From: an uncultured Anaerolineales bacterium
Lineage (GTDB): Bacteria > Chloroflexota > Anaerolineae > Anaerolineales > UBA6663
Direction: 5' to 3'
NCBI GenBank assembly: GCA_964480865.1
Contig: CAYZRP010000001.1
Span: forward strand, 22,096 to 86,095
DNA: 64,000 bases
Made by a program: the position numbers and the translations under genes. The notes below the pieces were generated by a model. It ran no database searches and was not told where the DNA came from. It saw only the letters and a list, made by a program, of their open reading frames with translations. Each line of letters starts with the position of its first letter. Positions within the stretch are counted from its first letter, which is position 1. Shown piece after piece: positions 42,255 through 57,557 of this stretch.

Positions 42255-43406
42255 ATGAGCAGCACTCGGCATTTTGAAGCGGTGGTTGTGGGTGGCGGCC
42301 TGGTCGGTAGCTCGATCGCCTATCACCTCGCCCGTGCCAGCGTCCCCACCTTGCTGATTGAGCAGGGTGATCTGGCCTCCGGCGCTTCAGGCGCGAACTT
42401 CGGCAACGTTCAGGTGGAGGACTCGGAGTTCGGCTTGAGCCTGGAACTGACTCTGCGCGGCTTCGCGCGTTTCGCTGATCTGCAGGCTGAGCTGGATTAT
42501 GACGTGGGCCTCCGGCGAACGGGCCAGCTCTTGTTGATCGAGAATCGCCGACAGATGGCGCTCATGCAGGAACGGGCGGTCCGCCTGAACGCAGCGGGCT
42601 TGCATACTGCGTTGCTGGACAACGCCACGCTAGGTCATCTGGAACAGCACGTGAACCCCGACGTTGCGCTGGGCGCGCTCTATCATCCCGACGAGGCCAC
42701 GCTGGATCCCTTCAGGCTCGTGCGTGCCTTCGTGTTGCGCGGTCAGGATCGAGGCCTGGAAGTCTGGACCCATACACGCGTGACGGGCATCGACATCCAG
42801 GGTGGGCGGGTGATAGGCGTCTCGACGCCGGTGGCGCGTGTGTCGGCCCGCTGGGTGATACTGGCCGCCGGTGCCTGGGCACACGAATTGGGCCGGCTGG
42901 CAGGCGTCGATCTGCCGATGGGCTGGATCCACGGTGAGGCAGCGATTACGGAACCCCTGGCACCGGTGGCGTCAAACGCGCTGGCCACGGCAGCCTTCTT
43001 TGAGGCGACAGCAGGCGCGGATGAACAGACCGTGGGGTTCTGTCTTCGCCAGCGTCCGCAGGGTCATGTCATGATCGGGGAGGCGGCCACGCTTACACGC
43101 GCCTTAAGCCGTCGGACGAGCGCCTCGGCTCTGCCCGCGATCGCGCGCGAGGCCGGTCGCTGGATACCCGGTTTGCGGCGCGCGCACGTGATCCGATCCT
43201 GGGCAATCCCTGTGGCGTTCACGGCCGACAACCGGCCGCTGTTGGGACCCGTTGACGGGATCGACGGCCTGGTCGCTGCGACAGCGCTCAAGAGCACCAT
43301 CATCTGGACACCGGTTGTCGGCGAGTTGGTGGCCGGCCTGATCGCGGACTCGCGTTGGGATGCGCGGCTCGATGAGTTCTCGCCTACCCGCCGCGACATC
43401 ACCTGA
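42255..43406 (+). CDS. FAD-dependent oxidoreductase (DAO / sarcosine-oxidase-beta-like family)
   Basis: N-terminal dinucleotide fold HFEAVVVGGGLVGSSIAYHLA...LLIEQGDLASGASGANFG. 383 aa. Confidence 0.8.
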   Translation: MSSTRHFEAVVVGGGLVGSSIAYHLARASVPTLLIEQGDLASGASGANFGNVQVEDSEFGLSLELTLRGFARFADLQAELDYDVGLRRTGQLLLIENRRQMALMQERAVRLNAAGLHTALLDNATLGHLEQHVNPDVALGALYHPDEATLDPFRLVRAFVLRGQDRGLEVWTHTRVTGIDIQGGRVIGVSTPVARVSARWVILAAGAWAHELGRLAGVDLPMGWIHGEAAITEPLAPVASNALATAAFFEATAGADEQTVGFCLRQRPQGHVMIGEAATLTRALSRRTSASALPAIAREAGRWIPGLRRAHVIRSWAIPVAFTADNRPLLGPVDGIDGLVAATALKSTIIWTPVVGELVAGLIADSRWDARLDEFSPTRRDIT

Positions 43407-43631: not shown

Positions 43632-44207
43632 TCAGAAGACAGGCGGTGTAATCGCCGAAATGTAGGTGGCCTCGCCTTCACCTGACACCGTGAGTGAACT
43701 GAGGGTGCGGCCCTCGAAATAGATGCTGTCGCCAGCTTCGAGCTGGTACATCTGGCCCGAGATGACGACGTTGATCTTGCCGGTCAGCAGCACAAGGCAT
43801 TCCTCGGTCGGCTCGGCCAGCGGCGCCACGACGATGTTTCCATCCTCTGCCGTAACCCGCCCCTGAAATAGAACCATTTTCCGGTTCAGGGTAGGGGTCA
43901 GAATCTCGTATTGGATGTGACCGTTCGAAAGGTTCAGACGGCGGCGCTCATGTCTCCTGACCACCGGACTGCTTTCAGACGTAGCGGTGGCCATGAACAA
44001 CAGCGACGTGCCCAGGGCGGTCGAGACTTTGCGCAGCGAATCCAGAGTGGGGTTGGCTATCCCGCGCTCCAGATTGCTCAAGAATGTCGCGCTCAAACCT
44101 GTGGAGGCCGACAGGTCGCGCAGGCTGAGGTTCAGTTCGGTCCGCCTGGCCTTGATGTGGGAACCGATCCTCACGACTTCTTCATCGGGTGCGTTTTGAT
44201 CTGGCAT
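43632..44207 (-). CDS. XRE-family HTH regulator with a C-terminal cupin domain
   Basis: IGSHIKARRTELNLSLRDLSASTGLSATFLSNLERGIANPTLDSLRKVSTAL (HTH), plus a cupin-like C-terminus (ECLVLLTGKINVVISGQMYQLEAGDSIYFEG). Confidence 0.85.
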   Translation of the reverse strand: MPDQNAPDEEVVRIGSHIKARRTELNLSLRDLSASTGLSATFLSNLERGIANPTLDSLRKVSTALGTSLLFMATATSESSPVVRRHERRRLNLSNGHIQYEILTPTLNRKMVLFQGRVTAEDGNIVVAPLAEPTEECLVLLTGKINVVISGQMYQLEAGDSIYFEGRTLSSLTVSGEGEATYISAITPPVF

Positions 44208-44412: not shown

Positions 44413-45408
44413 CTACCAGCGGGCATGGACCTGGCTGCGAATGCGCCGGTCATAGACAGACCTTGCCTGAGCATGCACCTCAGCCGATAGGGGCGGCCAC
44501 TCTGCCGCCCGCGCATTGTCCACTACCTGGGCCGGGTACTTGGCCCCTGGGATCGTGCACGTCACTGCCTCGAAATCCAGGATCCAGCGCAGCGCGAACT
44601 GCGCGAACGTCATCCCGGCGGCGACGAGCGGGCGAAGTTCCTCGACTGCGGCCAGCCCGGTCTGATAATCCACGCCACTGAACGTCTCGCCTTTGTCGAA
44701 GATCTCGCCGTTGCGGTTAACGACCCGATGATCGTCCGGCTCGAAGACGGTGTCGGGCTTCATCTTTCCGGTCAGCATGCCCGACGCCAGCGGCACGCGT
44801 GCGATGACGGCGACGCCGCGCCGAAGCGCTTCGCTGAAGAACAATTCGGCCGGACGCTGCCGGAACAGGTTGAACACGATCTGGATCGATTGGACGTTCG
44901 GGAACTCGATCGCCTTCAGACCCTCTTCCACCTTCTGGACACTGACGCCGTAGTGCTGGAGTTTGCCGGTCTGAACGATCTCGTCGAGCGCTCCGAAAGT
45001 CTCGGGCCTGTAATACACCTCGGGCGGCGGGCAGTGCAGTTGGAGCAGGTCGATCCGCTCGACGCCCAGGTTCTTCAGGCTCTGGTCGACGAACGCCTCG
45101 AGATTGACCCGGTTGTAGCCTTCGGCCACGTGCGGGTGCAACCTCCGGCCGGCCTTGGTCGCGATCAGGATCGGCTCCTGACGTTCGCGCTTCAACTGCC
45201 CGAGTAGCTTCTCGCTGTGCCCATCGCCGTTCGCGCCGTACACGTCCGACGTGTCGAAGAAGTTGATGCCCAGGTCGACCGCTTTGTGAAGCGCCGCGAG
45301 CGAGTCTCGGTCGTCGACATGCCCGAACTCGCCGCCGATCTCCCAGGCTCCGAAGCCGATCGGCGACACCTCCCAACCCGTCCTGCCAAAGCTGCGATTG
45401 CGCATCAA
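44413..45408 (-). CDS. Aldo/keto reductase
   Basis: RSFGRTGWEVSPIGFGAWEIGG...ALHKAVDLGINFFDTSDVYG...IDLLQLHCP is the canonical AKR pattern. 331 aa. Confidence 0.9.
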   Translation of the reverse strand: MMRNRSFGRTGWEVSPIGFGAWEIGGEFGHVDDRDSLAALHKAVDLGINFFDTSDVYGANGDGHSEKLLGQLKRERQEPILIATKAGRRLHPHVAEGYNRVNLEAFVDQSLKNLGVERIDLLQLHCPPPEVYYRPETFGALDEIVQTGKLQHYGVSVQKVEEGLKAIEFPNVQSIQIVFNLFRQRPAELFFSEALRRGVAVIARVPLASGMLTGKMKPDTVFEPDDHRVVNRNGEIFDKGETFSGVDYQTGLAAVEELRPLVAAGMTFAQFALRWILDFEAVTCTIPGAKYPAQVVDNARAAEWPPLSAEVHAQARSVYDRRIRSQVHARW

Positions 45409-45429
45409 GGTCTCCAGCGATGTCGTGCG

Positions 45430-46398
45430 TCAGAGCTCGTAGCCGAAATACGAACGCGCCAGCACGCCCAGGTTGATCTGTCCGCCCACGAACGAGTGGC
45501 CGGTCTTCAGGCTGTTGATGATGACCTTCGCCGGCGAGTCGACAAGATCCGGCACCTCGAACCAGTTGCGGTTGTACTTCTCGAAGATGCGCGCGAACGG
45601 CATCCCCCAGAGCTCGCCCGAGTTCACGTCGAACGTGAAGGTCGGCAGGATCGACATGATGGCTTCATCGGGCACGTCGGCGTAGAGCACGGTGGTGGCG
45701 CCGTAGAAGAGGGCGTCGTTGGCGCGGCCCATCATCTCGCCCTCGTCGCCCACGAGCGGCGCGACCGGCGCGGTGCCGAAGCCGAACTTGACGGCATGGA
45801 TGTCGAAGCCGCGCAGGAAGAGCTTGATCATCACCTGCTCGACCGTGCGCGACGCGACCTGGATCGCGCCCACCAGGCAGGCCGTCGGCGCAAACACCAC
45901 GTAGACCTGCTCGGGCTGTACGCCGCACGCGGTCGCCACGAACTTGCAAAGATCATCGGACGGCACGCGCGTGGTTTGCAACTGCACGACCACTGCGCTC
46001 GGGTCCGGGTCGCGATAGCCGTGGCCGGACCAGCGATCGGCCAGCGCCACAGCCCGCGCCGGGCCGGAACCGATTTGGGCGAACTCGCCCTTGCCGAGCT
46101 CCCAGCAACCGGCCTGCGAGGCCACGACCGCGAGCACCGGGTTGTCGACCCAGACGTCGATCGACGGCACCGTAAACGGGCCGACCTCGAACCGGCCGTA
46201 GCCGGCACGGCCCTGGCCGCCGAACCCGGCCTCGACGAAGACCTGGCCGGCCTTCCAGCTTCCCGGGCAGCTGATGCCCATGTCGACGAGCGTGGCGCCG
46301 CAGTCGGCCTTCCACGACTTGATCTGAAGCTCTTCGGCATGCTCGATCGCGTCCTGCACGAGCTTCACGGCGTTTCGATTGAGGCTGATCGTCGTCAT
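45430..46398 (-). CDS. Methenyltetrahydromethanopterin-cyclohydrolase (Mch)-family protein, paralogue 1
   Basis: Start at 46398 (ggaga RBS) gives MTTISLNRNAVKLVQDAIEHAEEL. VDMGISCPGSWKAGQVFVEAGFGG, LAVVASQAGCW, QIGSGPARA, MGRANDALFYG and SPAKVIINSLKTGHSFVGG follow the Mch family pattern along the whole length. Confidence 0.8.
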   Translation of the reverse strand: MTTISLNRNAVKLVQDAIEHAEELQIKSWKADCGATLVDMGISCPGSWKAGQVFVEAGFGGQGRAGYGRFEVGPFTVPSIDVWVDNPVLAVVASQAGCWELGKGEFAQIGSGPARAVALADRWSGHGYRDPDPSAVVVQLQTTRVPSDDLCKFVATACGVQPEQVYVVFAPTACLVGAIQVASRTVEQVMIKLFLRGFDIHAVKFGFGTAPVAPLVGDEGEMMGRANDALFYGATTVLYADVPDEAIMSILPTFTFDVNSGELWGMPFARIFEKYNRNWFEVPDLVDSPAKVIINSLKTGHSFVGGQINLGVLARSYFGYEL

Positions 46399-46438
46399 CG
46401 ATGTCTCCGGGTGGCGGTGTGATCCGCCGTCGTCAGGT

Positions 46439-47938
46439 CTAGGCCCGGGCTGCGTTGATCGCTCGGGCAAGTTTTTGATACAGGCCAAGGCGTTCGGCAT
46501 ACAGGCCGGCGCGCTCGGGATCCGGTTCAAGGGAGTGATGGGCCGGCTGAAGCGCCGCGATCGCCTGATCGAGCGTCGAGTAGGCGCCGACGCCCCAACC
46601 AGCCAATGCAGCCGCTCCGACGGCGGCCCAGTCGGTGTCGGCCGCGACCTGGATCGGGATCCCGCAGGCGTCGGCCAGGATCTGCGACCAGACCGGGCTG
46701 CGATTGGCGCCGCCGGCCAGCCACAGTTCGTTGACAGGGACGTTCACCGAGCGCAGTTCCTCGAGCGCCCAACGCACTTCGAAGGCGCATCCCTCGAGCA
46801 CGGCCCGGCTCATGTCCGCACGCGTGTGTGCCAGCTCGAGGCCTACGAAGCCGCCGCCGGGTTTGGCCGCCGGGATCTGTGACGGCCCGCTCATCGACAT
46901 GAAGAACAGTCCGCGACTGCCGGCCGGGCTGACCGCCGCCGCCGCATTGAGCGCCGGGTAATACTTGCCAAGGTCCTCGCCTTCGGGCGTATCGACGGCG
47001 AAGCTCTGCCGCACCCACCAGTCGAGCGTGGCGCCGAAGCCTCCGACGAGCTGGCCGCCGAGGCGTTGCCCAGGCACGGCGTGGAAGTACAGGTTGACCC
47101 ACTCCGGCACCGCGTCGGTGGTGTCGGCCTCGACCACGCTCATCAACACCCAGGCGGTGCCGGTCGAAAGCATCACCTTGCCGGGCGCCGTCATCCCCAT
47201 GCCGAGGCCGGCGCAGGGCTGATCGTTGCCGCCGGCGATGACGGGCGTGCCCGCCGGCAGGTCCGTCAGCTGCGCGATCTCGGCCGTGATCTCGCCGACG
47301 CGCCGGCCGGCCCAACCGATGTCGGACTGCAACGACGCGTCGACGCCGCCGATTTCACACAGCTCGGTGTTCCATTCGCCCGTGCGGATGTCGACAAGCA
47401 GCATCTCGGACGAGGCCGACAGGTCTGTGGCGAAGCGGCCGGTCAGGCGATGGATGATGAAGTCCGCCGGGCCTAGATAGCGCTTCGCGGCGGCGTGCAC
47501 GTCCGGTCGATGCCGGCGCAGCCACCCGATAGACGGCAAGGGCAGCCCGGCGAAGGGGTGCCAGCCGCTCAGGCGTCTGATTGTCGCGGCCGTGCCGTCG
47601 GCATTCCATTCGTTGCTCTGTTCCTGGCTGCGGTTGTCGAGCCACGTGATCATGGGGTAGACCGGATCGCCCGCCAGATCTGTGGCGATGATCGAGCCGG
47701 CCTGAGCCGCGATCGCCAGCGATAGGATTCGGTAGCCCTCCATGCGCGCGACGATGTCTTTGAGGCTCTCGAGCAACGTCTGCCACACGGCTTCGGAGTC
47801 CTGTTCGACCCAACCCGGCTGCGGGGTCAGCAGCGGATAGGGCTGACCGGCACTGGCGACTTCTTTGCCGTCGAGGTCGAAGCCCATGATCTTCACCGAC
47901 GAGGTGCCGATGTCGATCCCCAGGATCGCGTCCTTCAT
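46439..47938 (-). CDS. FGGY-family carbohydrate kinase
   Basis: Start at 47938 (ATGA overlap with the aldolase stop) gives [21 protein letters not shown]...[12 protein letters not shown]. The C-terminal [25 protein letters not shown] is typical FGGY. Confidence 0.85.
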
Positions 47939-48720
47939 GCTCGACCTCGCTCGAAGATCTGTCTGGCGGAATCGCTGTCGGCTCCGCCGTGCACGATGGC
48001 CGACAGCGCGGCCACCATGGCCTGCGGGTCGCTGGCCTGGAAGACGTTGCGGCCAATGGCGACGCCTGCCGCGCCAGCCAGGATCGCTGCATGAACGGCC
48101 TTGAAGAGAGGATCCGGCGAATCGGCTCTCGCGCCTCCCAACATGACGACGGGAACGTACGTGTTCTGCACGACTCGCTCGAAGCCCTCGGCGTAAGGCA
48201 CCTTGGTCCAATCGGCGCCGAGTTCGGCCGCGACGCGCGCCGACAACGTGACAGCCTCGAGCGAGCGTCGCTCGGCCGGGGCATCGAATCCGCCCGGCTG
48301 CATCTCGGCCATCACGGGCAGGCCCCAGGCATGGGCGCTCGTGATGGTGTGCGCCAGAAGCTGAAGCGTCGCGGTCTCCTCCGGCGTGCCGGGGAAGGCC
48401 GAGACGGCCACGGCGTCAGCGCCGATCCGGAGTGCGTCTTCGACGGTGTAGAACGAGATGCCCGGCCCCATCTTGCCGAGCTTGGTCGCGCCGACGTCAA
48501 GGCGCAGGATCAAACCGAGCGGCGCGATCTCGGCCTCGAAGTTGCGGGCCATGCCGTAGCTGGTCAGGATGGCATCCGCGCCGCCCGCCACAAGTTGCGC
48601 GAGCAGGTCGGCCGGTGACTCGAGGCCGCGGACGGCGCCTTCGGTCAGGCCGTGATCGAGAGCCACGATCAGGGCGCGGCCATCCGAATGGAAGATGCGA
48701 TTGAGACGTCGACGCAGCAT
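47935..48720 (-). CDS. Class I aldolase of the DhnA/FbaB/LsrF (DeoC/LacD-like) family
   Basis: [20 protein letters not shown], then a Schiff-base lysine context GADWTKVPY, then VVMLGGAR. 261 aa. Confidence 0.8.
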
Positions 48721-48740
48721 GATGAGCTATTCCTCACGCC

Positions 48741-49538
48741 TCAGACCGGCAGAAGCCGCTTGACTCGTTCGAGCGCTTCTACTTCCGTGGTCGACGGCGT
48801 GAACTCGAGACCGATGTAGCCGGTGTAGTTCAGTTCCACAAGCTTGCGATGGATGTTGACGAAGTTGATCTCGCCGGTGCCCGGCTCCTGGCGGGTGGGG
48901 ACGTCGCCGACGTGCACGGCGTCGTAGAGGCCTTTGTATTCCTCGAGGCCCCAGATCAGGTTTCCGGCCTGACGCTGCTGGTGATAGCAATCGAAGACCA
49001 TGCGCAATTTCGGGTGGTTGAAGCTCCGCACCCAGTCGGCCGCGAGACCGTGCTCGTTGACCAGGATGCCGCCCTTGATGTGGAACTCGTTGAGGGCCTC
49101 GACCCAGACGACGATGTTGGTCTGCTCGACGAGCTTCAGGATCCGCTCGGTCTGGCGCAGCGTGTTGGCGTACTGCTCGGCCGGCGTGAAGTTCGACGAC
49201 AGCCGCCGGGTCCACGTGCGCCCGTTGACGAAGTCGACCTGGTTTGAGAACAGGAACAGGTGCTCGACGCCGTGCTGGGCGGCCATCTCGAGGCTTTCGG
49301 CCCAGGTGCGCAGCGTGAGTTCGTTGTCGTTCGGGTCGGCCAGGCTGCCCATGTCGTCGTCGAAAGCCGAGTTCAACACCGCGCCGCAGCGCCGACACTC
49401 GGCCGCGATCTCGGCCATCGGCTGCATGCGCCACGACCACACGTCGAGCCGGCGCAGCCCAAGCGCCACCATCGGCTCGACGCGCTCGACGATCGGACGA
49501 TCCTTGAACCAGAAGTCCAGATACCCGGTGTATTCCAT
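48741..49538 (-). CDS. Xylose-isomerase-like TIM-barrel protein (hydroxypyruvate isomerase / OtnI-like)
   Basis: VWVEALNEF...MVFDCYHQQRQAGNL...HVGDVPTRQEPGTGEINFVNIHRKLVELNYTGYIGLEFTP is the Hyi/OtnI family signature. Confidence 0.8.
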   Translation of the reverse strand: MEYTGYLDFWFKDRPIVERVEPMVALGLRRLDVWSWRMQPMAEIAAECRRCGAVLNSAFDDDMGSLADPNDNELTLRTWAESLEMAAQHGVEHLFLFSNQVDFVNGRTWTRRLSSNFTPAEQYANTLRQTERILKLVEQTNIVVWVEALNEFHIKGGILVNEHGLAADWVRSFNHPKLRMVFDCYHQQRQAGNLIWGLEEYKGLYDAVHVGDVPTRQEPGTGEINFVNIHRKLVELNYTGYIGLEFTPSTTEVEALERVKRLLPV

Positions 49539-49604
49539 GTTCGCTTGCCTCCTTGACGGGTTTGCGTCACGGCCTTCAGACCGCGCTCGCCCGTGTGCTG
49601 TCGG

Positions 49605-51026
49605 TTAATCTTCGCGCCCGGCGCGGATCAAGAAATCGATGGTCAACGGGATCAGCGGCGGACGGATGGTGTACATGCCGATCGCGTCGAGATGCACGGC
49701 GCTGTTCGATGCGGCCTGGATGGCGTCGGCGATCGCGCGCTCGCACATCCGACCCTGGCAGTTGCCCATGCCCGCGCGCGTGATCATCTTGACCTCGCCG
49801 ATCGTGCGCGCGCCATCCGCCACGGCCGCGCGCACCCGGCCCAGCGTGACTTCCTCGCAGCGGCACAGCGGCGTCTCGTCGTGCAGGGCGGCGCGCAGCC
49901 CGGCAGGCGGAGTGAAGTACGCGTTCAAGAACGCGCTGAAGCGCCGTTGTTGCTCCAGCGCGGGTTGCAGATCCTGTCGCAGCGCCGTCACGCGCGTGGT
50001 GTCGATCTTGCCGGCATCGAGCGCGGCCGTCCATCCGGCGAGCCGACCCTCGAGCCGCCCGAGCCCTGCGCCGCCGACCCGAGCGCCATCGCCGGCCACG
50101 TAAACGCCAGGGGCGTCTGTGCGCAGGTCAGCGTCGCGGGTGGGGAGCCACTGCCGGGTCTGCGCGTCGAAGTCGAAGCCGCAGCCGATCATGCGCGCCA
50201 GGCTCGTGTTGGGCGTGAAGCCGTAGCCGCTGATGACGGCGTCGACCTCGACCGCGACCTCGCTGCCCGCGATCGGCGCGCCCGTCGCATCGAGCCGAGC
50301 CAGGGTCGCGCCGGTCACCTTGCCTTCGCCGTGCGCGGCCACGACCGACCAGCCCTGCCGGTAGGGTGTCTTTCCGCGCACGAGCGCCGCCATGTACTGC
50401 CAGCCTTCGCCGAGCCGGCGGCCTTCGCGCAGCAGCGTTGGCGCATGGGCCACCACGCCGAGCGGCAGCCGGTTGGCCTCGCATACGCCGACGACGGTCA
50501 CGCCCGCATCGATCAGGTGCGCGGCGATGGAGAGCAGCAGCGGCCCGGTGCCAGTCACGACCACGCGCTTGAAGGGCGCAACCCGCTGCGACTTGACGAA
50601 GTTCAGGGCGGCGCCGCAGGTGATCACGCCTGGCAGCGTCCAGCCCGGGAAGGGCAGCGGCGTGTCGTAAGCGCCGGTCGCTAACACAAGGCGTTGGGCG
50701 TGGATCTTGCGCGGATCGCCGGAGCAGTTCAGGTCGATCTCCCAGCCGTCGCCGCTCTCTTCTTTGAAGATCCCCCAGACCTGCGCCTCGAAGATCCTGC
50801 GCACACCGGCCGGCTCGAGCCGATCGGCAAGCTGTTGCCCTTCACGTTCGACGACGGTCGGGCGGAGCGATCGGAAGGTTTCGGGCGAGCGGTGGTAATA
50901 CTGCCCGCCGGCAGCTGGAGCCTGGTCGATCAGGATCGTCTTCAATCCGGCGCCGGCCGCCGCCAGCGCGGCTTCGATGCCGGCTGGGCCGGCGCCCACG
51001 ACGGCGAGTTCGCATCGGTCGCTCAC
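49605..51026 (-). CDS. FAD/NAD(P)-binding oxidoreductase subunit with a BFD-like [2Fe-2S] motif (HcnB / opine-oxidase-A-like)
   Basis: GTG start at 51026 (GTGA overlap with the upstream stop) gives VSDRCELAVVGAGPAGIEAALAAAGAG. A second dinucleotide fold (VVVTGTGPLLLSIAAHL) is present, as is CRCEEVTLGRV...TRAGMGNCQGRMC. Confidence 0.75.
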   Translation of the reverse strand: MSDRCELAVVGAGPAGIEAALAAAGAGLKTILIDQAPAAGGQYYHRSPETFRSLRPTVVEREGQQLADRLEPAGVRRIFEAQVWGIFKEESGDGWEIDLNCSGDPRKIHAQRLVLATGAYDTPLPFPGWTLPGVITCGAALNFVKSQRVAPFKRVVVTGTGPLLLSIAAHLIDAGVTVVGVCEANRLPLGVVAHAPTLLREGRRLGEGWQYMAALVRGKTPYRQGWSVVAAHGEGKVTGATLARLDATGAPIAGSEVAVEVDAVISGYGFTPNTSLARMIGCGFDFDAQTRQWLPTRDADLRTDAPGVYVAGDGARVGGAGLGRLEGRLAGWTAALDAGKIDTTRVTALRQDLQPALEQQRRFSAFLNAYFTPPAGLRAALHDETPLCRCEEVTLGRVRAAVADGARTIGEVKMITRAGMGNCQGRMCERAIADAIQAASNSAVHLDAIGMYTIRPPLIPLTIDFLIRAGRED

Positions 51027-51328
51027 AGCTTCATCTCCTGGTTGGTCTCGATGGCCATGCCGGCTTTCACCGGCGTCAGGCAGGCACGCACCGCGTGAGC
51101 GCCGTCGATCGTCACAAGGCACTCGAAGCACACGCCCATGCCGCAGTAGACACCGCGCGGCTCGCTCGAGCGCGCCGATCGGCGCAATGCCACGAGGCCC
51201 GCCGCGTACAGCACCGTCGCCACGGTCTCGCCTTCGAAGGCCTCGACGGCCGAGCCGTTCACGGTAACGGGCACAGGTTTGCCGCGTGCCACTTCAGGCA
51301 GAAGCGTGCTCGACGTCTTGATCCGCAT
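51023..51328 (-). CDS. Small (2Fe-2S)-binding subunit (HcnA / sarcosine-oxidase-alpha N-terminal-like)
   Basis: ATG at 51328 follows ggagggga. VTVNGSAVEAFEGETVATVLYAAGL...GVYCGMGVCFECLVTIDG..AVRACLTPV. 101 aa. Confidence 0.75.
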   Translation of the reverse strand: MRIKTSSTLLPEVARGKPVPVTVNGSAVEAFEGETVATVLYAAGLVALRRSARSSEPRGVYCGMGVCFECLVTIDGAHAVRACLTPVKAGMAIETNQEMKL

Positions 51329-51366
51329 CCTGAAATCCCCTCCGGTCATTGACACAACGCGCCGGC

Positions 51367-52536
51367 TCAACTCGCGTGAGCTTCCCAATACGACTCGGTT
51401 GGCCCCGAGAAACGTGTCGGGGCATATTGCTCCAATGAGAGCGGCGGCTTTTCGCCGCGGAACATCAGGGCCACCCACTGCGCCAGTAGCGGCACCGCCG
51501 TGATCGTCTCCATCAGGCTCGTCGCCACGAACAGGTTGTCGAGCCCGGGCGCCCAGCCGACCAGCGGCTCCTCGTCGGGCGTGAACGACGTCGGCCGACC
51601 CCAGCTGCGCACGATCCGTACCTTTGTCAGGAACGGATAGAGCTTGACCAGATCGGTGGCCAGGGCCGACGGGCCCCACGAACTGACGCGATGATGCAGC
51701 TCGGGCGTGCGCGTGACCGATTCGGCGATCGCGAGCGTGCCGTTGAGCTCGGGATGGATCCCGATGGTCACGGCCTTGGGCTTGCCGTGGATGGTCTCGT
51801 AGCTGTCCGAAAGGCCGATGTTGTGGAAGATCCGTGGCGGGATCGCCTCGGTGATGAATGACTCGGCGTGAGCGTGGTGGATGGGCAGTTCGACACCCGC
51901 CAGCCGTATCACGGGGTTCTCCCAGGCGCCGGCCATGACGGCCACGATGCCCGCTGAATATGTCGCGACCGCGGTCTTCACCGACACGATGCGCCGGCCC
52001 TCGACCTGCAGGGCGATCACAGGCTCATGGCGGTGGAGCTCGGCGCCGAGGCGCCTGGCCGCGCGCGCGTAAGCGTGGATGAACCTCAGCGGATCAACGC
52101 GACCTTCGACCGAATGGACGGCGCCGAACAGGCCGTCGAGGACGAGGTTGGGCTCGGCCTCGCGCAGCGCGTCCACGTCGATCACTTCGGTCGGGATGCC
52201 GACCGAGGTCAGGAAGGTCGAGCGCTCGAGCCAGCTGGCCCGGTGGGGTTCACGGCGCAGCAACAACAGCAGCGACGCCCGGCGCCAGTCGTAGTCGTAG
52301 CCCAGTTCCTCGGCCAGATGCTCGTGTCGCTCGACGCCGCCGCGCACCAGGGCGATGTTGAGCGGGTCGAGGTGGCCCTCGCAGACCTGGGCGCGGCCCG
52401 AGCACGAGCCCGAGGTGCCGCTCCCCAGGTCGCCGGCCTCGAGCAACAACACCCGCAGGCCGGCCTTGGCGGCTTCGTAGGCGGCTGACACTCCCAGGAA
52501 TCCGCCGCCGATGATGATCACGTCGTGAGTCGTCAT
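51367..52536 (-). CDS. FAD-dependent oxidoreductase subunit (HcnC / opine-oxidase-B / sarcosine-oxidase-beta-like)
   Basis: MTTHDVIIIGGGFLGVSAAYEAAKAGLRVLLLEAGDLGSGTSGSCSG. 389 aa. The start overlaps the Mch-2 stop (ATGA at 52533-52536). Confidence 0.8.
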   Translation of the reverse strand: MTTHDVIIIGGGFLGVSAAYEAAKAGLRVLLLEAGDLGSGTSGSCSGRAQVCEGHLDPLNIALVRGGVERHEHLAEELGYDYDWRRASLLLLLRREPHRASWLERSTFLTSVGIPTEVIDVDALREAEPNLVLDGLFGAVHSVEGRVDPLRFIHAYARAARRLGAELHRHEPVIALQVEGRRIVSVKTAVATYSAGIVAVMAGAWENPVIRLAGVELPIHHAHAESFITEAIPPRIFHNIGLSDSYETIHGKPKAVTIGIHPELNGTLAIAESVTRTPELHHRVSSWGPSALATDLVKLYPFLTKVRIVRSWGRPTSFTPDEEPLVGWAPGLDNLFVATSLMETITAVPLLAQWVALMFRGEKPPLSLEQYAPTRFSGPTESYWEAHAS

Positions 52537-53501
52537 GGTATGTCGATGTCGAACAGGCTCTTCAGGATCAGATCGTCGCGCATCCGCCCGGCCTTGAACA
52601 TCCGCCCGGTCTTCATATTCACGATCTGCACCGCCGCCGGCGAATGGATGTCCAGGTCCATCTGGTAAAAGTCGCGGTTGGCTTCGACGAACAGGTCGCG
52701 GAACAGCCGGCCGTAGTCGCGCGACGACTCGGTCACGAGCTTCGGCAGGACGGCCGCGATCGTGTCGTCGTCGCCATGCACCCAGAACTCGGACCGGCCG
52801 CCGTAGAGCAGGCAGTCGTTGATCTTGCCCATCGCGGCCTCGGCATCTTCATCCACCGGGGCGACGATACACAGCCCGCGCGCGTGGGCGAGCGTGTTCA
52901 GATCGTAGCCCTTCTTCATCATCTTGTTGATGGTCTGCTCGAGGATGCGTGCGGAGACCTGGATCGCGGCCACGATCGAGCTGGTCTTGTGGGCCAGGAA
53001 GTACACGTGATCGGGCGCGACGCGACAATCGGCAACGACCTGGGCCGTCATGCGATCGTCGGGCAGGTGGTTGGCCTGCACGCCAAAGATCACGGTGTCG
53101 GCAGTGTCGCGGTAGGTCGTGAACTCGAAGCTGTGGTCGATCGCCAGCGCGGCTTTGGCGCGGCCAGGTCCAGAACCAATGGCCGCGAAGTCGCCGCTGC
53201 CGAGCGGGTAGCCGCCGATCTGGCTGCACAGGCAGGCCAGCAGCGGCTCAGATGTTGTCACCTCGACGGCCATCACCGAGACGTCACCGGGCAGGGTGTA
53301 GTGGGTAAGCTGGCAGGCGCCGAGGTCGGCCATGCTGATCTCGGCGAAGAGCCGGCCGGCTTCGAAACTGCCCTTCGCGTTTACGCCCATGTCGATCACG
53401 TGGGCGCCGGAGGGGAGACGCAGATACTGACAGCCCAACGCCTCGGCGTTTGCGATCAGGTGCTGGACCTTTGGGAGGGCGTGCTCATTCAGGCTGATCA
53501 T
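52533..53501 (-). CDS. Methenyltetrahydromethanopterin-cyclohydrolase (Mch)-family protein, paralogue 2
   Basis: MISLNEHALPKVQHLIANAEAL, IDMGVNAKGSFEAGRLFAEISMADLG, EPLLACLCSQIGGY, AIGSGPGRA, MGKINDCLLYGGRS, ESSRDYGRLFRDLFVEANRDFYQMDLDIHSPAAVQIVNMKTGRMFKAGR: Mch family pattern end to end. Confidence 0.8.
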   Translation of the reverse strand: MISLNEHALPKVQHLIANAEALGCQYLRLPSGAHVIDMGVNAKGSFEAGRLFAEISMADLGACQLTHYTLPGDVSVMAVEVTTSEPLLACLCSQIGGYPLGSGDFAAIGSGPGRAKAALAIDHSFEFTTYRDTADTVIFGVQANHLPDDRMTAQVVADCRVAPDHVYFLAHKTSSIVAAIQVSARILEQTINKMMKKGYDLNTLAHARGLCIVAPVDEDAEAAMGKINDCLLYGGRSEFWVHGDDDTIAAVLPKLVTESSRDYGRLFRDLFVEANRDFYQMDLDIHSPAAVQIVNMKTGRMFKAGRMRDDLILKSLFDIDIP

Positions 53502-53530
53502 CGACGATGGATCTCCCGGGTTGATCGGTG

Positions 53531-54949
53531 TTAGCCGTGGCGCGTGAACGGGCCGACGTCGACGGGTCGGCCGTTGATCGTGTTGCCGAGCCCGACGCGC
53601 TGGCGCAAGTTGTAAGCCGACTCCTGCAATGCATAGACGGCTTCCGTCTCATCCGTCGAACAGATCACGCCATCCTGCATCACGATGCGCCCGTGGATGA
53701 CGACCGTCTGGATCGAGGTCGGGTTGGACGAGTACACCAGGCACGTGATTGGATCGGTGACCGGCACGCAGGCGACGTTCCTCGGGTCGAACAAGAAGAA
53801 GTCCGCCAGTTTGCCGACTTCGAGCGAGCCGATCTCGCTCTCGCGGCCGACGACGCGTGCACCCTCGATCGTCGCCATCTTGACGACGTCCAGGGCGTTC
53901 AGGATCGTGGGGTCCTGGTGGAAGCCCTTATGGACGATGGCCGCCAGCTTGATGACCTCGAGCATGTTCTGCGTATCGTTGCTGGCCGCACCGTCCGTCC
54001 CGAGGCCGACGTCGAGGCCCAGGCGCTTCAACGTCGGGACTGGCGCGACCCCTGAGGCGAGGAGCAGGTTCGAGACCGGGTTGTGCGAGCACTTGATCTT
54101 GCGCCTGCCGAAGATCTCGAGCGTGGTCGAGTCGAGGTGGACGAGGTGAGCGCCGATGAAGTCCTCGCCCAGGATGCCGGTCTGGTCGAGCAGCTCGGCC
54201 GTGTTCATGTCGTAGTGCGCTCGAGTGAAGGCGTCGTCCTCGGGGGTCTCGTCGAGGTGCATGGTGATGCGCAGGCCGTGCTGGTCCGCGTACTGCCGCA
54301 GTCGACGATAGCCGTCGGGGTCCATGTCCCAGACGATCCCGGGCGCGAGGGCGAGCGAGACCGTCTCATGTCCTGCGAGTGTTTCGCGCAGCCGATCGAC
54401 ATCGGCGTAGAACATGTCCTCTGTCTCGTTGATCGGGCAGCGAATGGCGTCAGGGAAGCCGTCGGTCTTCGTGTGCGCGCGCCCGAGGATGCCGCGGATG
54501 CCCGTCCGCTCGAAGGCTCGCACCACAGCGTCGTCCAGGCCGCTCTCGCTGGCGTGGGCGTACATGTAGTCGAGCACCGTGGTCACTCCGCTGCGGATGT
54601 TCTCCAGGCAGCCGGCAACCGCGGCATTGTAGATATCGACAGAGCGGATCTCATGCAGGGCCTTGCGGACGGAGTTGTCGAGCCAGTCGAACAGACGCAG
54701 GTCGCGGCCCAGGCCCTTGAGAGCATTCTGGAACAGGTGAGTGTGCGTGTTGATGAAGCCCGGGAAGACGAATCGGTCGCGGCCATCGATGACGACTGGG
54801 CTCGCGTAGGCTGCCAGGATCTCGGCGCTTGGGCCCATGGCGACGATGCGGCTGTCGCGTATCGCCATCGCGTGGTCTTCCAGGATGCTGATGCTCTGGT
54901 CCATCGTCACCAGCGTGGTGTCTCTGACGATCAGCGTCACGTTTTCCAT
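53531..54949 (-). CDS. Metal-dependent amidohydrolase (chlorohydrolase / nucleobase-nucleoside deaminase-like subgroup)
   Basis: Start at 54949 gives MENVTLIVRDTTLVTMD. FVFPGFINTHTHLFQNALKG (HxH motif) is present, along with later TMHLDE, GAHLVH and LGTDGAASN motifs. Confidence 0.85.
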   Translation of the reverse strand: MENVTLIVRDTTLVTMDQSISILEDHAMAIRDSRIVAMGPSAEILAAYASPVVIDGRDRFVFPGFINTHTHLFQNALKGLGRDLRLFDWLDNSVRKALHEIRSVDIYNAAVAGCLENIRSGVTTVLDYMYAHASESGLDDAVVRAFERTGIRGILGRAHTKTDGFPDAIRCPINETEDMFYADVDRLRETLAGHETVSLALAPGIVWDMDPDGYRRLRQYADQHGLRITMHLDETPEDDAFTRAHYDMNTAELLDQTGILGEDFIGAHLVHLDSTTLEIFGRRKIKCSHNPVSNLLLASGVAPVPTLKRLGLDVGLGTDGAASNDTQNMLEVIKLAAIVHKGFHQDPTILNALDVVKMATIEGARVVGRESEIGSLEVGKLADFFLFDPRNVACVPVTDPITCLVYSSNPTSIQTVVIHGRIVMQDGVICSTDETEAVYALQESAYNLRQRVGLGNTINGRPVDVGPFTRHG

Positions 54950-54974
54950 GACCAGGATCCCCCCAGGTCGTCGA

Positions 54975-55940
54975 TCAGGCGCGCGGCTCCGACTCGTACA
55001 CGAGTTGTTGGCGCGTATATAGGAAGCCCGGTGGATGCAGGCCGACGAACAGAAGTCGGGCATGCGGGTGCGCCACCGACTTGAATGGGCTCTGCCCACC
55101 CGGCGTCGTCTGGCCGCCGATATAAACCGACGAGTAATTCACGAAGAGCTCGTCGAGCGCCTGCTCGCCCAACAGATGCCACCAGTAAGTCGGCGACTCG
55201 ACGAGCAGGTGTTCGATGCCGATTCGGCGCAGGGCATACAGCAGCACCCCGGTATGTGGGGCATCCTCGCCCGCCATCAAGACGATCGGATGACCCGCCT
55301 GCCGGGCTGCCTGAAAGTGTGCAGAGAGGTCCGACGTATCCACTTCTGCCTGCGTGTTGAACGGCCCAAGCCATACCGTGTCCGCTGCGATGAGCGGCTT
55401 CAAGTGTGCTCCGCCCCTGGCGCATGTCGCGATCATGGGGCGCCCGTCGGCACGTCGAAAGGCAGGGTGGTCGAGAGGCACATCGCTGCCGTCAAGCGAA
55501 ACCACGATGGGCACCAGGGGCAGGGTCTTTCCGAGGATGACCGGCCGCTCGGCGATCAGGTCGACGTCCTGGCAGCCGAACTCGGCGTCGGGCTCAGCCG
55601 CCAGGGTGCGCGCTCCGATCAGGCTGGCGTCGGCGTAGGCGCGCAGCACGTTGAGGATCCAGTAGTCTGCGGCGCCCCCGTCGGGGTCGAGCGAGTTGTT
55701 CGAGGCCACCAACGGCCCGCGCGTGTCGTCAGGGTAGGCCATCTTGCCATCGAACGACAGCACGATCGACGCGAAGATGTACGGCCGGTCCGAGCCCGGC
55801 TTTGGAAAGAAGAGCTCGTGGAAGTTGGATTGAGCCTTCGAGAGAGACGCCGCCGCCTGCGATCGAAACCGCAAAGATTGCAGCGCCATCTCGTCGCTGT
55901 ACAGAGCTGAAATGCGCGGTGGGTTGGGGTTGATAGACAT
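54975..55940 (-). CDS. RibD C-terminal-domain-like reductase (pyrimidine-reductase / DHFR-like fold), with an N-terminal extension of about 50 aa
   Basis: RPYIFASIVLSFDGKMAYPD...DYWILNVLRAYADASLIGARTLAAEPD...IVVSLDGS resembles the RibD_C pattern (P-x-V-x-x-x-A-x-SLDGK...LRA..DA...G..T). Family assignment is moderate. Confidence 0.55.
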   Translation of the reverse strand: MSINPNPPRISALYSDEMALQSLRFRSQAAASLSKAQSNFHELFFPKPGSDRPYIFASIVLSFDGKMAYPDDTRGPLVASNNSLDPDGGAADYWILNVLRAYADASLIGARTLAAEPDAEFGCQDVDLIAERPVILGKTLPLVPIVVSLDGSDVPLDHPAFRRADGRPMIATCARGGAHLKPLIAADTVWLGPFNTQAEVDTSDLSAHFQAARQAGHPIVLMAGEDAPHTGVLLYALRRIGIEHLLVESPTYWWHLLGEQALDELFVNYSSVYIGGQTTPGGQSPFKSVAHPHARLLFVGLHPPGFLYTRQQLVYESEPRA

Positions 55941-56012
55941 CTGGGTCTCGAAGCGGTTCGTGGCGCTTCACCAAACGTCACTGGTCGCAGTGTACTGTAG
56001 GCATTACAACAC

Positions 56013-56031
56013 TGTCAACTGACAGTTGACA
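56013..56031. promoter_or_regulatory. 19-bp palindrome in the divergent control region (candidate shared operator)
   Basis: tgtcaactgacagttgaca is palindromic around its central A. It contains TTGACA on the + strand (56026-56031) and on the - strand (56018-56013). A related imperfect copy, tgtcaagtatagttgcaca, lies at 56098-56116. Confidence 0.5.
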
Positions 56032-56054
56032 CGCAAACCTGATCGGCATAGGAT
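56026..56054 (+). promoter_or_regulatory. Candidate sigma-70-type promoter for the BMP-ABC operon
   Basis: TTGACA (56026-56031), 17-nt spacer, TAGGAT (56049-56054). This would give a leader of about 270 nt before ATG 56334. Identified by eye only. Confidence 0.3.
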
Positions 56055-56333
56055 GCACATGTAAAACCACGAGGGCGGGAAGAAACTACACCAAATCTGT
56101 CAAGTATAGTTGCACACGGGCGCACCGTTCGTTCTGACGGATGATGCCTGTGTGGGTCAACGAAGTGGATGAGTGAGCTGTGCACAGGTTCGGGCAAACC
56201 GGTCTCTCCCACTACACAGGTGCCTCCTGCTCTCTCGCGAAGGCGTTCGATCCTTTCACGTGCGCACCCGGTCATGCACCGGTCTCGGCGGACTCCAGAC
56301 GGATGATCACATCCACAAAAGGGAGAAGGAGCG

Positions 56334-57338
56334 ATGAATCTTATTAACGCCTGTCGAATGATTGCGATTGCGTCACTGACGGTTGCTGCCGTTGGCTGCA
56401 CCCCGGCAGCGACCCCGGCACCCGCCGCGCCCACAGAAGGCGCCAAGACCATCCGGGTCGCCATGATCACGTCTGGCCCCACCAATGATCATGGGTGGCA
56501 CCAGAACGCCCTGGAGGGCCTCCAGTCCATCAACAAGGAACTGGGCTACGAGATCGCCTACTCCGAAAGCGTCGAATCGGCGCAACAGCAGAACACCCTG
56601 CGCCAGTATGCCCAGCAGGGCTACAACCTGATCTACTGCCACGGCTATGAGTGGGGCGAGGCCCTCAAGGCGGTTGCACCCGATTTCCCGGATACGATGT
56701 TCGTCCAGATCAACGCCACGACCGAAGGCGCTAACATCGTGGGCACGAACTTCAAGTTCGGCGAACTTGGCTACTTTGCGGGCATGGCCGCCGGCATGAT
56801 GACCAAGAACGGCAAGATCGGCATCGTGGCCGCGCAGGACGCCCCGCAGGTGACCGCGGACTCCGACACGATCCAGCTCGGCGCCAAGGCCGTCAATGCG
56901 GACGCCGACGTCAACGTCTCGTTCGTGGGTTCGTGGGACGACGTGGTCAAGGGCCAGCAGGTGACGCAGGCCCAGATCGATCGCGGTGTCGACGTCCTCA
57001 TCATCATCGGCGACTCCTTCGCGCCACCGGCGATTGAGCTGGCCAAGTCGAAGGGCATCATGGTCATCGGCGGCTGGAGTGGCGATGCGCACGACCTCGC
57101 CCCCGACACCGTGATCACGAGCGCCGTTCAGGACGTCCCGGGCGTGTACCTGTCAGTCGCCAGGCAGTACGGGGCCGGCACCCTCAAGGGCGGCACCTCC
57201 TTCGTCAGCGGGTTCGCCGAGAAGACGCAGAAGATGGGCGTCTGGGGCGACTTCGTCCCCGCCGAGGTCAAGGACAAGGTGAATGCCGCCATCGCCGACT
57301 ATCTCGACGGCAAGCTCGATTTCCCGGTGCTCAAGTAG
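56334..57338 (+). CDS. BMP-family (PnrA/Med-like) ABC transporter substrate-binding lipoprotein
   Basis: RBS ggagaaggag. Signal peptide plus lipobox (LTVAAVGC). IRVAMITSGPTNDHGWHQNALEGL...GYNLIYCHGYEWGEA is typical of the basic-membrane-protein (nucleoside/purine-binding) family. Confidence 0.85.
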   Translation: MNLINACRMIAIASLTVAAVGCTPAATPAPAAPTEGAKTIRVAMITSGPTNDHGWHQNALEGLQSINKELGYEIAYSESVESAQQQNTLRQYAQQGYNLIYCHGYEWGEALKAVAPDFPDTMFVQINATTEGANIVGTNFKFGELGYFAGMAAGMMTKNGKIGIVAAQDAPQVTADSDTIQLGAKAVNADADVNVSFVGSWDDVVKGQQVTQAQIDRGVDVLIIIGDSFAPPAIELAKSKGIMVIGGWSGDAHDLAPDTVITSAVQDVPGVYLSVARQYGAGTLKGGTSFVSGFAEKTQKMGVWGDFVPAEVKDKVNAAIADYLDGKLDFPVLK

Positions 57339-57383
57339 GCGGTGGAACCTGTTTGATGACCATCGAGAATAAGGTCTGAATAG

Positions 57384-57529: not shown

Positions 57530-57557
57530 TCGTGTCCGCGCAATCGGAGTGCGATTC

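Follow-up and report, generated by a model that had tools for sequence, protein, structure and literature searches.

Organization of the operon

The window, a stretch of 64,000 nucleotides (nt) from the genome of an uncultured Anaerolineales bacterium (contig CAYZRP010000001.1), contains an operon with two genes of the Mch family, the family of the methenyltetrahydromethanopterin cyclohydrolases. Eleven co-directional genes, G1 to G11, occupy positions 44413-55940 of the minus strand. The operon had been proposed in a first-pass annotation made from the sequence alone and is confirmed by the open reading frame (ORF) calls, by gaps of at most 66 nt and by three gene overlaps. The more important finding is a widespread gene cluster in which Mch paralogues are coupled to a complex resembling the 2-oxoacid and acetoin dehydrogenases, and of which the window holds a reduced variant enriched in sugar-cleavage genes.

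54975-55940, minus strand: G1, first gene of the operon, RibD_C/Rib7-type NADPH-reductase-like protein of 321 amino acids (Pfam, AlphaFold, Foldseek)
53531-54949, minus strand: G2, amidohydrolase of the cog0402 deaminase/chlorohydrolase group (Amidohydro_1, E 2e-60)
52533-53501, minus strand: G3, Mch-family cyclohydrolase of the "Mch2" subfamily (PF02289, 329.7 bits; TIGR03120, 301.8 bits against a cut-off of 228.8)
51367-52536, minus strand: G4, DAO-family FAD oxidoreductase, SoxB/HcnC-like beta subunit (Pfam DAO, E 8e-51)
51023-51349, minus strand: G5, small 2Fe-2S subunit, HcnA-like (Fer2_4, E 1.6e-27)
49605-51026, minus strand: G6, HcnB-like protein with Pyr_redox_2, Fer2_BFD and SO_alpha_A3 (Pfam)
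48741-49538, minus strand: G7, xylose-isomerase-like TIM barrel, Hyi/OtnI-like (AP_endonuc_2, E 1.7e-20)
47935-48720, minus strand: G8, class I aldolase/thiolase of the DhnA/LsrF/ADH-synthase group (DeoC/LacD; DeoC, E 1.5e-28)
46439-47938, minus strand: G9, FGGY carbohydrate kinase, XylB/LsrK-like (FGGY_N, E 1.9e-53; FGGY_C, E 2e-23)
45430-46398, minus strand: G10, second Mch-family cyclohydrolase, of the "Mch3" subfamily (PF02289, 294.2 bits; TIGR03120, 264.6 bits against 228.8)
44413-45408, minus strand: G11, last gene of the operon, aldo-keto reductase (AKR; NCBIfam AKR models)
55941-56333: divergent control region between G1 and the first gene of a BMP-family importer (consensus matches only)

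The intergenic gaps from G1 to G11 are 25, 29, -4, 17, -4, 66, 20, -4, 40 and 21 nt. The three gaps of -4 nt are ATGA or GTGA start-stop overlaps: the start of G4 overlaps G3 by 4 nt, the GTGA of G6 overlaps the stop codon of G5, and the overlap between G8 and G9 is ATGA. With no gap above 66 nt and three such overlaps, the genes have the anatomy of one transcription unit. A search for terminator-like sites oriented like the operon found none between the genes, the one minus-strand match falling inside G4. The GC content of the operon resembles that of its flanks.

Upstream of G1 a sigma-70-like site, TTGACA-18-TACACT, is found by consensus match on the minus strand (56018-55989). It stands back-to-back with a second one, TTGACA-17-TAGGAT, on the plus strand (56026-56054), also a consensus match, which faces the BMP gene. 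The 13-bp palindrome CAACTGACAGTTG sits between the two promoter-like sites (55989-56054) and is a possible operator shared by the operon and the transporter.

Gene starts were set from homologue alignments and the start-stop overlaps. The longest-ORF rule over-extends G2, G5, G6, G9 and G10 by 35-110 codons (for example at 46439-48211 and in other high-GC stretches), and long antisense shadow ORFs are common in such stretches. The families were called with Pfam and NCBIfam profiles at their curated cut-offs. Among the operon proteins only the two Mch copies reach a curated NCBIfam equivalog cut-off; the others, since they fall below every one of these, are placed at the family level only. All family assignments of the first-pass annotation held under hidden Markov model, sequence-motif or fold tests, that of G1 being weak by Pfam and backed by its fold.

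The Mch paralogues

A one-genome-per-species scan gave 78 loci, each extending 10 kb to either side of one Mch gene. The proteins of the window were compared with the loci by tblastn, and ORFs were clustered in 75 non-redundant loci. Clustering separates at least four bacterial Mch subfamilies. Mch1 follows a gene for a short-chain dehydrogenase/reductase (SDR). Mch2 follows the gene for a lipoyl E2 protein and includes G3, which groups with 28 orthologues downstream of E2. An unnamed subfamily is the single-copy type of Chloroflexi and Acidimicrobiales. Mch3, to which G10 belongs, is confined to Chloroflexi, and a Mch of the G10 type lies beside the Hyi-aldolase-FGGY module in six of six contexts (the window, L004, L074, L083, L084 and L086). 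The clusters hold two to four divergent Mch paralogues, about 32-40% identical to one another.

G3 matches the Mch structure 1QLM with an E value of 1e-70 and 39% identity, and G10 is 36% identical to it; G3 and G10 share 32% identity, and both are 36-39% identical to the Mch of M. kandleri. The catalytic Glu, the site of the E-to-Q exchange in 4GVR/4GVS (4GVQ and 4GVR differ at GRIV(E/Q)T), is aligned and present in both proteins. Arg183 and Glu186 are invariant (100%) across all four bacterial paralogue groups. The paralogues were compared at 70 positions with at least 85% conservation among 17 reference Mch (A. fulgidus numbering), of which G3 keeps 47 and G10 keeps 50; some of the reference sequences were archaeal and methylotroph matches of unverified function, and the positions were chosen by conservation, not by contact with tetrahydromethanopterin (H4MPT). 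All four bacterial groups replace E140 (by Q), T225 (by I or A), P250, K259, Y270 (by R) and F280 (by H or D).

One explanation of the two genes would be genuine H4MPT-dependent one-carbon (C1) metabolism, in which an ordinary Mch takes part in the oxidation of formaldehyde released by a sarcosine-oxidase-like enzyme. G3 and G10 are above the TIGR03120 cut-off with their catalytic residues intact, and, like the methanogen and methylotroph enzymes (1QLM, 4GVQ), the paralogues belong to the Pfam and TIGRFAM families, with 31-39% identity and with Arg183 and Glu186 in place. Some Firmicutes, Actinomycetes and Chloroflexi are reported to carry H4MPT-linked genes (PMC5020050), which keeps this explanation alive. 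It is nevertheless highly improbable. Unlike known Mch genes, the bacterial paralogues lack the context of the H4MPT pathway: fae, mtd, ftr/fhc, fwd and the genes of H4MPT biosynthesis are absent from the eight Pfam-annotated loci and from the Pfam-checked gene clusters among the 45 commonest in the 75 loci, absence from a locus being distinct from absence from a genome. In addition, two to four divergent copies occur per cluster, conserved Mch positions (among them E140, T225, Y270 and F280) are systematically replaced, and the hosts are for the most part Chloroflexi and fermenters that are not methylotrophs, with Clostridia, Spirochaetes, Halanaerobiales and Fusobacteria among them. The missing partners, the multiplicity, the shared substitutions and the hosts together argue against an ordinary role in C1 transfer.

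A widespread gene cluster around the Mch genes

Homologues of G3 with 70-94% identity occur in metagenome-assembled genomes (MAGs) of Anaerolineales and Chloroflexia, and remoter ones in Clostridia, Spirochaetes and others. When the gene order of the first-pass annotation was checked across genomes, it was found in full in two Anaerolineales MAGs, L004 (JBGAGY010000007.1) and L007, with amino acid identities of 59-98%, and this agreement is far beyond chance. L005 and L006 are truncated copies of the same operon.

The most frequent partners of the Mch genes in the 75 loci are SDR (49 loci), E1alpha and E1beta (47 each) and lipoyl E2 (43), counts that rest on a crude ORF caller and single-linkage clustering, the shadow-ORF clusters c16, c28, c33 and c34 being ignored. 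E3, LplA or LipA often accompany them. The usual order of this core is GntR-SDR-Mch-E1alpha-E1beta-E2-Mch (for example L002:3422-10969; also in L001-L003, L008-L031 and others). The core is found in Clostridia, Spirochaetes, Fusobacteria, Halanaerobiales, Cloacimonadota, Chloroflexi and Acidimicrobiales. Chloroflexota, Bacillota, Spirochaetota and Actinomycetota are among the phyla with the core, and some Clostridia hold up to four Mch genes. Less frequent partners are a cog0402 amidohydrolase (30 loci), the XRE-cupin regulator (22), the BMP ATP-binding cassette (ABC) importer (about 20), the RibD_C-like reductase, a D-2-hydroxyacid dehydrogenase and a luciferase-like monooxygenase-family (LLM) oxidoreductase (14 each), FGGY kinase (13), DAO/HcnB-like proteins and the molybdenum (Mo) subunit of a xanthine dehydrogenase (XDH)-family enzyme (12 each), Hyi with the aldolase (8-9), an M20 peptidase (8), an FMN reductase (7) and UbiD/UbiX (3). 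A literature search on PF02289 and on Mch in Chloroflexi returned nothing relevant and the cluster is in no paper searched; this widespread cluster of Mch and E1/E2 genes appears to be uncharacterized.

In two Chloroflexia MAGs, L082 and L083, the core and the genes of the window operon other than that of the AKR form one superset, in the order RibD_C, amidohydrolase, GntR, SDR, Mch1, E1alpha, E1beta, E2 and Mch2, continuing with LplA, a second amidohydrolase, XRE-cupin, DAO, Fer2_4, HcnB-like, Hyi, aldolase, FGGY and Mch3. All the modules are also present in a single stretch of about 38.6 kb in OY969772.1, together with XDH, LLM, OTCase-like, M20 and GcvT-like genes. The window operon corresponds to the superset without the stretch that runs from GntR to the second amidohydrolase, and with the AKR gene added; tblastn of the 64-kb window found no homologue of E1, E2 or SDR. 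Judged by gene content, it is a lineage-specific, reduced mosaic of separable modules rather than a fixed unit.

Several loci have company of their own. At L084:1-10981 (OY969772.1) genes for an OTCase-like carbamoyltransferase, M20, an amidohydrolase, the XDH Mo subunit and LLM lie directly upstream of Hyi-aldolase-FGGY-Mch3; on the same contig the GcvT-like gene adjoins the HcnABC-like genes and the FGGY gene is split into two ORFs. In L034-L037 (Halanaerobiales and Cloacimonadota) the core stands beside a B12-binding protein, a URO-D/MtaA-like protein and Pterin_bind, which make up a corrinoid methyltransferase set, and beside GH31 and FGGY, the Halanaerobiales loci also carrying a xylose-isomerase-like protein. 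L028 (Sediminispirochaeta) has only the URO-D, Pterin_bind and GH31 genes of this corrinoid and glycosidase set. The company of corrinoid methyltransferases and GH31 is a hint that the substrate may come in methylated or glycosylated form. UbiD occurs in L053, L062 and L021, the same loci as XDH-family genes, and directly follows the Mo subunit in L053; UbiX occurs in L053 and L062. This arrangement recalls the Cupriavidus route from lumazine to xanthine.

The separability of the modules is an argument for a mosaic that serves no single substrate (an amine, opine or Amadori oxidase with a sugar set, a deaminase-reductase pair and orphan Mch genes) or else acts on some other cyclic amidine or iminium, such as the thiazolium of thiamine, an alkylpyrazine or an ectoine-like compound. 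The modules do occur in many combinations and orders, and the minimal unit of Clostridia consists of SDR, E1/E2 and two Mch genes, with neither transporter nor deaminase nor sugar genes. Moreover, the combination of DAO/HcnB-like proteins with a kinase and an aldolase resembles the logic of Amadori and opine catabolism. Such a mosaic is still quite unlikely: the eleven genes, behind a single upstream promoter-like site, either show translational coupling or are separated by no more than 66 nt, the modules regroup with Mch genes even in distant phyla, as would be expected if they were functionally linked, and BMP importers are not known as the usual binding systems for opines or Amadori compounds.

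The reductase and the amidohydrolase

The Pfam RibD_C score of G1 is low (32.9 bits against a cut-off of 24.1), and no NCBIfam equivalog is reached (best 29 bits, cut-offs 150-274). The AlphaFold model, built from 29 homologues, has a pLDDT of 92, and its top Foldseek match is Rib7 of M. mazei (5XUX, E 1e-13, TMt 0.76-0.83). Further matches are other pyrimidine reductases, including bacterial RibD domains, and the dihydropteridine-bound Rv2671. D92, invariant in the family of G1, aligns with the Asp that is mutated in Rib7 5XV0 (D33N). According to the model, G1 has the fold of the Rib7/RibD reductases together with their key Asp. Its subfamily is small and separate (72 proteins).

G2 carries the HxH metal motif in "NTHTHLF". 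Its top NCBIfam matches are TRZ/ATZ hydrolase, 8-oxoguanine deaminase and 5'-deoxyadenosine deaminase, with 268-276 bits, all below the cut-offs of 522-609; the closest PDB entries are AtzA, methylthioadenosine/S-adenosylhomocysteine deaminase and 8-oxoguanine deaminase. A pair of the G1-G2 type is adjacent in 14 related loci of two phyla (Chloroflexi and Spirochaetes), the RibD_C-like gene always lying beside an amidohydrolase gene.

The pair mimics both RibD activities. The fold of G1, its key Asp and the pairing with a deaminase-type hydrolase recall RibD and Rib7 of riboflavin biosynthesis. The differences are that the deaminase of the operon belongs to the amidohydrolase superfamily and not to RibD_N with its cytidine deaminase fold, that G1 exceeds Rib7 in length by about 80-100 residues and scores far under all equivalog cut-offs, and that no other rib genes are present, the context of the operon being catabolic.

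The flavoenzyme, the sugar module and the aldo-keto reductase

G4, G5 and G6 have the same three-gene domain set as HcnABC, heterotetrameric sarcosine oxidase and the opine, proline and D-hydroxyproline dehydrogenases, and the trio of DAO, Fer2_4 and HcnB-like genes recurs in related loci. The best NCBIfam matches of G4, ThiO and SoxB, are both far under cut-off. G6 resembles the N-terminal part of SoxA, and its closest PDB entries are PH1363, the alpha subunit of an L-proline dehydrogenase, and the alpha subunit of sarcosine oxidase. Unlike in sarcosine oxidase, Pfam finds no GcvT-like folate domain in G6 or elsewhere in the window, and no curated cut-off is reached by the trio; in OY969772.1 GcvT is a separate gene.

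Of the sugar module, G7 stays below the equivalog level both of 2-oxo-tetronate isomerase (OtnI, 88 bits against 325) and of hydroxypyruvate isomerase (Hyi, 85 against 353). G8 scores 217 bits with NF005556, just under the cut-off of 241, and is closest in PDB to MJ0400 and LsrF; its Schiff-base Lys, in "GADWTKVPY", aligns with the Lys replaced by Ala in LsrF 4P2V. G9 does not reach the XylB equivalog (281 bits against 380). The module is reminiscent of autoinducer-2 processing by LsrK and LsrF and of the fucose and rhamnose sets, as the top matches are XylB and LsrK for G9 and MJ0400, ADH synthase and LsrF for G8, with an isomerase alongside. It differs from these in that no score reaches an equivalog cut-off, the isomerase resembles Hyi/OtnI and not LsrG, FucI or RhaA, and the module carries its own Mch of the G10 type in all six contexts.

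G11 scores under cut-off with the models of L-glyceraldehyde-3-phosphate reductase (E 7e-28) and of the methylglyoxal reductase YdjG (E 9e-24). Among the related loci, tblastn finds close homologues (more than 30% identity) only in L004 and L007, in the lineage that is without SDR-E1-E2.

Genes next to the operon

The regulator, importer and XDH-family genes that the first-pass annotation had placed next to the operon are borne out by HTH_3 and Cupin_2, by PDB matches and by Fer2_2, respectively.

43632-44207, minus strand: XRE-cupin regulator, 205 nt downstream of G11 (HTH_3, E 1e-12; Cupin_2, E 6.5e-7)
42255-43406, plus strand: second DAO-family oxidoreductase, a paralogue of G4 (33% identity), beyond the XRE-cupin gene
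56334-61311, plus strand: BMP-family ABC importer, with substrate-binding protein (SBP; 56334-57338), permeases (57549-58661 and 58655-59713) and double ATPase (about 59701-61311)
61427-62476, minus strand: D-2-hydroxyacid dehydrogenase (NCBIfam models, E 2e-40, below cut-off)
62702-64000, plus strand: XDH-family genes, with a 2Fe-2S subunit (62702-63205, Fer2_2) and a Mo-binding subunit that starts at 63202 and runs off the window

The XRE-cupin protein, with homologues in 22 related loci, is likely to be the regulator of the operon. Orthologues of the importer adjoin Mch clusters in about 20 loci. The closest PDB entries to the SBP are Med 2HQB, 7X0R, 3S99 and AtzT 6PI5, and it also matches the riboflavin receptor RfuA 4IIL (E 1.6e-9). 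The D-2-hydroxyacid dehydrogenase family recurs in 14 related loci and the XDH Mo subunit in 12, and the second DAO-family oxidoreductase is kept in L004 at 85% identity.

Two other regions of the window were noticed. From 26697 to 41978 four paralogous genes of the ADP-ribosylglycohydrolase family (26697-28766, 28918-30045, 33657-34919 and 39879-40907) lie intermixed with genes for a sugar ABC transporter and a LacI regulator and with two ORFs that, by eye only, are citrate-lyase alpha/beta-like; this looks like a separate, unusual cluster. At 2812-6644, 40 kb from the operon, GH31 and GH4 glycosidase genes lie beside an ABC system with a sugar-binding protein. GH31 recurs beside Mch clusters in other phyla.

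BMP SBPs similar to that of the window bind purine bases or nucleosides, and a purine nucleoside has to be considered as the substrate. A Mch paralogue would then open the imidazole or imidazolium ring of guanosine, inosine or 7-methylguanosine to a formamidopyrimidine, which would be deformylated, handled by the RibD_C-like reductase and the deaminase, N-dealkylated by the HcnABC-like enzyme and finally relieved of its sugar by cleavage. The 2-amino-4-oxopyrimidine of 7-methylguanine with its formamidinium resembles methenyl-H4MPT. G2 falls in the group of guanine, 8-oxoguanine and adenosine-type deaminases, G1 has the Rib7 fold, and XDH-family genes are adjacent. In OY969772.1 the OTCase-like, M20 and amidohydrolase genes resemble genes of ureido-compound and purine fermentation, and the GcvT-like gene next to the HcnABC-like genes suggests N-demethylation. 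The route leaves unexplained, however, the strongest association of all, that with SDR and the E1/E2 resembling pyruvate dehydrogenase (PDH), which in Clostridia is self-contained with two Mch genes; a nucleosidase would free ribose more simply, and no deformylase is evident in the window. A purine-nucleoside or 7-methylguanine route is unlikely, but it is a live rival.

A 6-substituted pterin cofactor (methanopterin or H4MPT, biopterin, neopterin or their glycosides) might also be scavenged or broken down. Mch, sometimes with a Mer-like LLM protein, would process the C1-loaded or ring forms, the HcnABC-like enzyme would oxidize the C9-N10 amine, SDR, AKR and E1/E2 would remove an acetyl or hydroxyketone chain, and kinase and aldolase would cut a side chain of the trihydroxypropyl or ribityl type. 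In favor of this, the paralogues keep the Mch fold and many conserved positions, Rv2671, which is G1-like, binds a dihydropteridine, and the group of G2 includes pterin and isoxanthopterin deaminases. Work on pterin deaminase is cited in PMC12391406. Pterin_bind and GH31 occur in clusters of Halanaerobiales, Cloacimonadota and Spirochaetes, and in 14 loci there is an LLM protein with Mer as its best NCBIfam match. Many of the source MAGs bear the names of samples from anaerobic reactors, sludge or sediment, habitats that usually hold methanogens. On the other side, the size and negative charge of methanopterin speak against a BMP-type importer, the cluster is also present in aerobic or marine Acidimicrobiales and in Caldilinea, and a full-text literature search gave no report of methanopterin catabolism. 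The Mer-like score is 156 bits against 276; the LLM neighbor, which may be a generic F420-dependent enzyme, was accordingly treated as a generic F420/FMN LLM and dropped as evidence for H4MPT. Catabolism of a pterin cofactor is improbable on balance, although it too is a live rival.

The proposed pathway

The favored reading, with a probability of roughly 40%, is that the operon is substrate-inducible and serves the catabolism of an imported N-ribityl or N-glycosyl heterocycle of the pteridine or flavin type, the ring of which is opened by the Mch-family proteins. Candidate substrates are 8-ribityl-lumazines, such as 6,7-dimethyl-8-ribityllumazine, and compounds derived from riboflavin or deazaflavin. 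In broader terms, the cluster probably breaks down an N-heterocycle that bears a sugar, for instance a pteridine, a flavin or a purine. Breakdown of an imported N-heterocycle is suggested by the recurrence of an importer related to nucleoside, base and riboflavin binders, of deaminase-type hydrolases, of the Rib7-like reductase, of Mo hydroxylases and of UbiD/UbiX. A sugar or polyol substituent is suggested by the set of kinase, isomerase and aldolase together with the secondary-amine dehydrogenase, and conversion of a carbonyl fragment to an acyl-CoA by the block of E1/E2 and SDR. The first-pass annotation had already proposed the degradation of an N-glycosyl or N-alkyl heterocycle through opening of the ring, deamination, reduction, C-N oxidation and cleavage of the sugar. 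This is partly supported: it is still the best available reading and gains some support from the pairing of RibD_C-like and amidohydrolase genes in 14 loci, but its scheme leaves the SDR/E1/E2 partner, present in 43-49 of the 75 loci, unexplained.

In the scheme inferred from family membership and synteny, the BMP-type ABC system would import the compound, and G3 and G10 would hydrolyze cyclic C=N or amidinium bonds and so open the ring, as Mch does with methenyl-H4MPT, on another substrate. G1 and G2 would act on the resulting ribosyl- or ribityl-amino-pyrimidine, replacing both RibD activities. The HcnABC-like enzyme, G4-G6, would oxidize the secondary-amine C-N bond that joins the side chain to the ring, and G7, G9 and G8 would break down the C5 side chain, handled as a ketose phosphate, while it is still attached or once it has been released. 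G11 may reduce a released aldehyde or dicarbonyl, and XDH-family enzymes may handle the remaining ring. In most other genomes SDR and the PDH/acetoin-dehydrogenase-like E1/E2 would cleave the carbonyl fragment to an acyl-CoA. By chemical reasoning, two hydrolytic C=N cleavages of a 6,7-dimethyl pteridine would free diacetyl (or acetoin) for E1/E2. The lineage of the window would have lost SDR/E1/E2, and the AKR, G11, appears in its place.

A number of points weigh against this pathway. In NCBIfam, E1 and E2 score best on pyruvate dehydrogenase and not on acetoin models, for which reason diacetyl or acetoin is only one option. Modules that recombine freely could serve several related substrates. 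The SBP of the window is nearer to Med, 3S99 and base binders of the AtzT type than to RfuA. An Rfam search at the gathering threshold found neither a riboswitch nor any other element that would report the ligand in the window or in seven Firmicute loci. Reduction of a ribosyl group followed by re-oxidation of the ribityl group is an uneconomical logic for catabolism, and ribityl-lumazines are not known as abundant substrates in the environment. Identities of 36-39% to the Mch of M. kandleri, with 47-50 of 70 positions kept, leave room for a true N5,N10-methenyl-bridged pterin. Finally, the RibU-like S component of an energy-coupling factor (ECF) transporter near the Clostridial cluster was downgraded to a weak clue to riboflavin, being parted from the cluster by unrelated genes, namely sigma/anti-sigma genes in L022 and pseudouridine genes in L002 and L016.

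The broader proposal that the Mch fold, so far known only from H4MPT-dependent C1 metabolism, has radiated in bacteria into at least four ring-opening subfamilies, which anchor a widespread degradation of pteridines, flavins, deazaflavins or ribityl precursors coupled to lipoyl E1/E2 working on a carbonyl fragment of the heterocycle, is possible but doubtful. In the window the AKR and the sugar module would replace the complex.

Comparison with known catabolic clusters

Three clusters for related heterocycles have been described. The lumazine cluster I of Cupriavidus sp. LA-1 encodes LuDH, a Mo enzyme of the XDH family, an isomerase, UbiD and a pterin deaminase (PMC12391406). The lum operon of Nocardioides, for lumichrome, encodes hydrolases, a thiamin-dependent heterocycle decarboxylase and an XDH-type enzyme (PMC12746152). 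In the fin neighborhood of C. scindens a kinase, a class I aldolase and a C-N-cleaving enzyme have been proposed for ribityl removal (PMC13492142).

Cluster I is matched by the XDH-family genes that flank the window operon and by UbiD/UbiX with XDH in some related loci. It has not been reported with Mch, E1/E2, HcnABC-like or sugar-cleavage genes, and UbiD is missing from the window; no search was made for 6,7-dihydroxylumazine isomerase. With lum the proposed pathway shares hydrolytic opening of a pyrimidine ring, a thiamin-dependent step on a heterocyclic acid and XDH-type hydroxylation, and with fin a kinase, a class I aldolase and C-N cleavage for ribityl removal. The families differ, lum having a P450, a Rieske dioxygenase and the small thiamin diphosphate-dependent subunits LumK/L, and fin having RibF and glycine-reductase-like proteins; neither has been reported with Mch or HcnABC-like proteins. 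Identity with any of the three was rejected, as by Pfam and NCBIfam their signature families are unmatched in the operon and the annotated neighbors, except for the XDH subunits. The earlier statement that no described pathway has this composition holds: none of cluster I, lum, fin and H4MPT-dependent C1 metabolism matches.

Implications

Automatic annotation labels these paralogues "methenyltetrahydromethanopterin cyclohydrolase", and metagenome surveys probably count them as markers of methanogenesis or methylotrophy, which is probably wrong in Anaerolineae, Clostridia and Spirochaetes. Hydrolysis of some other cyclic amidine or imine by these proteins, if true, would be the first function of the Mch fold outside H4MPT chemistry. 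The pathway, if true, would be a new route by which N-heterocycles (cofactors, nucleobase derivatives and the ribityl-lumazines relevant to mucosal-associated invariant T cells) are recycled in anaerobic reactors, sediments and soils. A modular cluster with a transporter, two types of regulator and separable enzyme blocks is an unusually good target for enzyme discovery.

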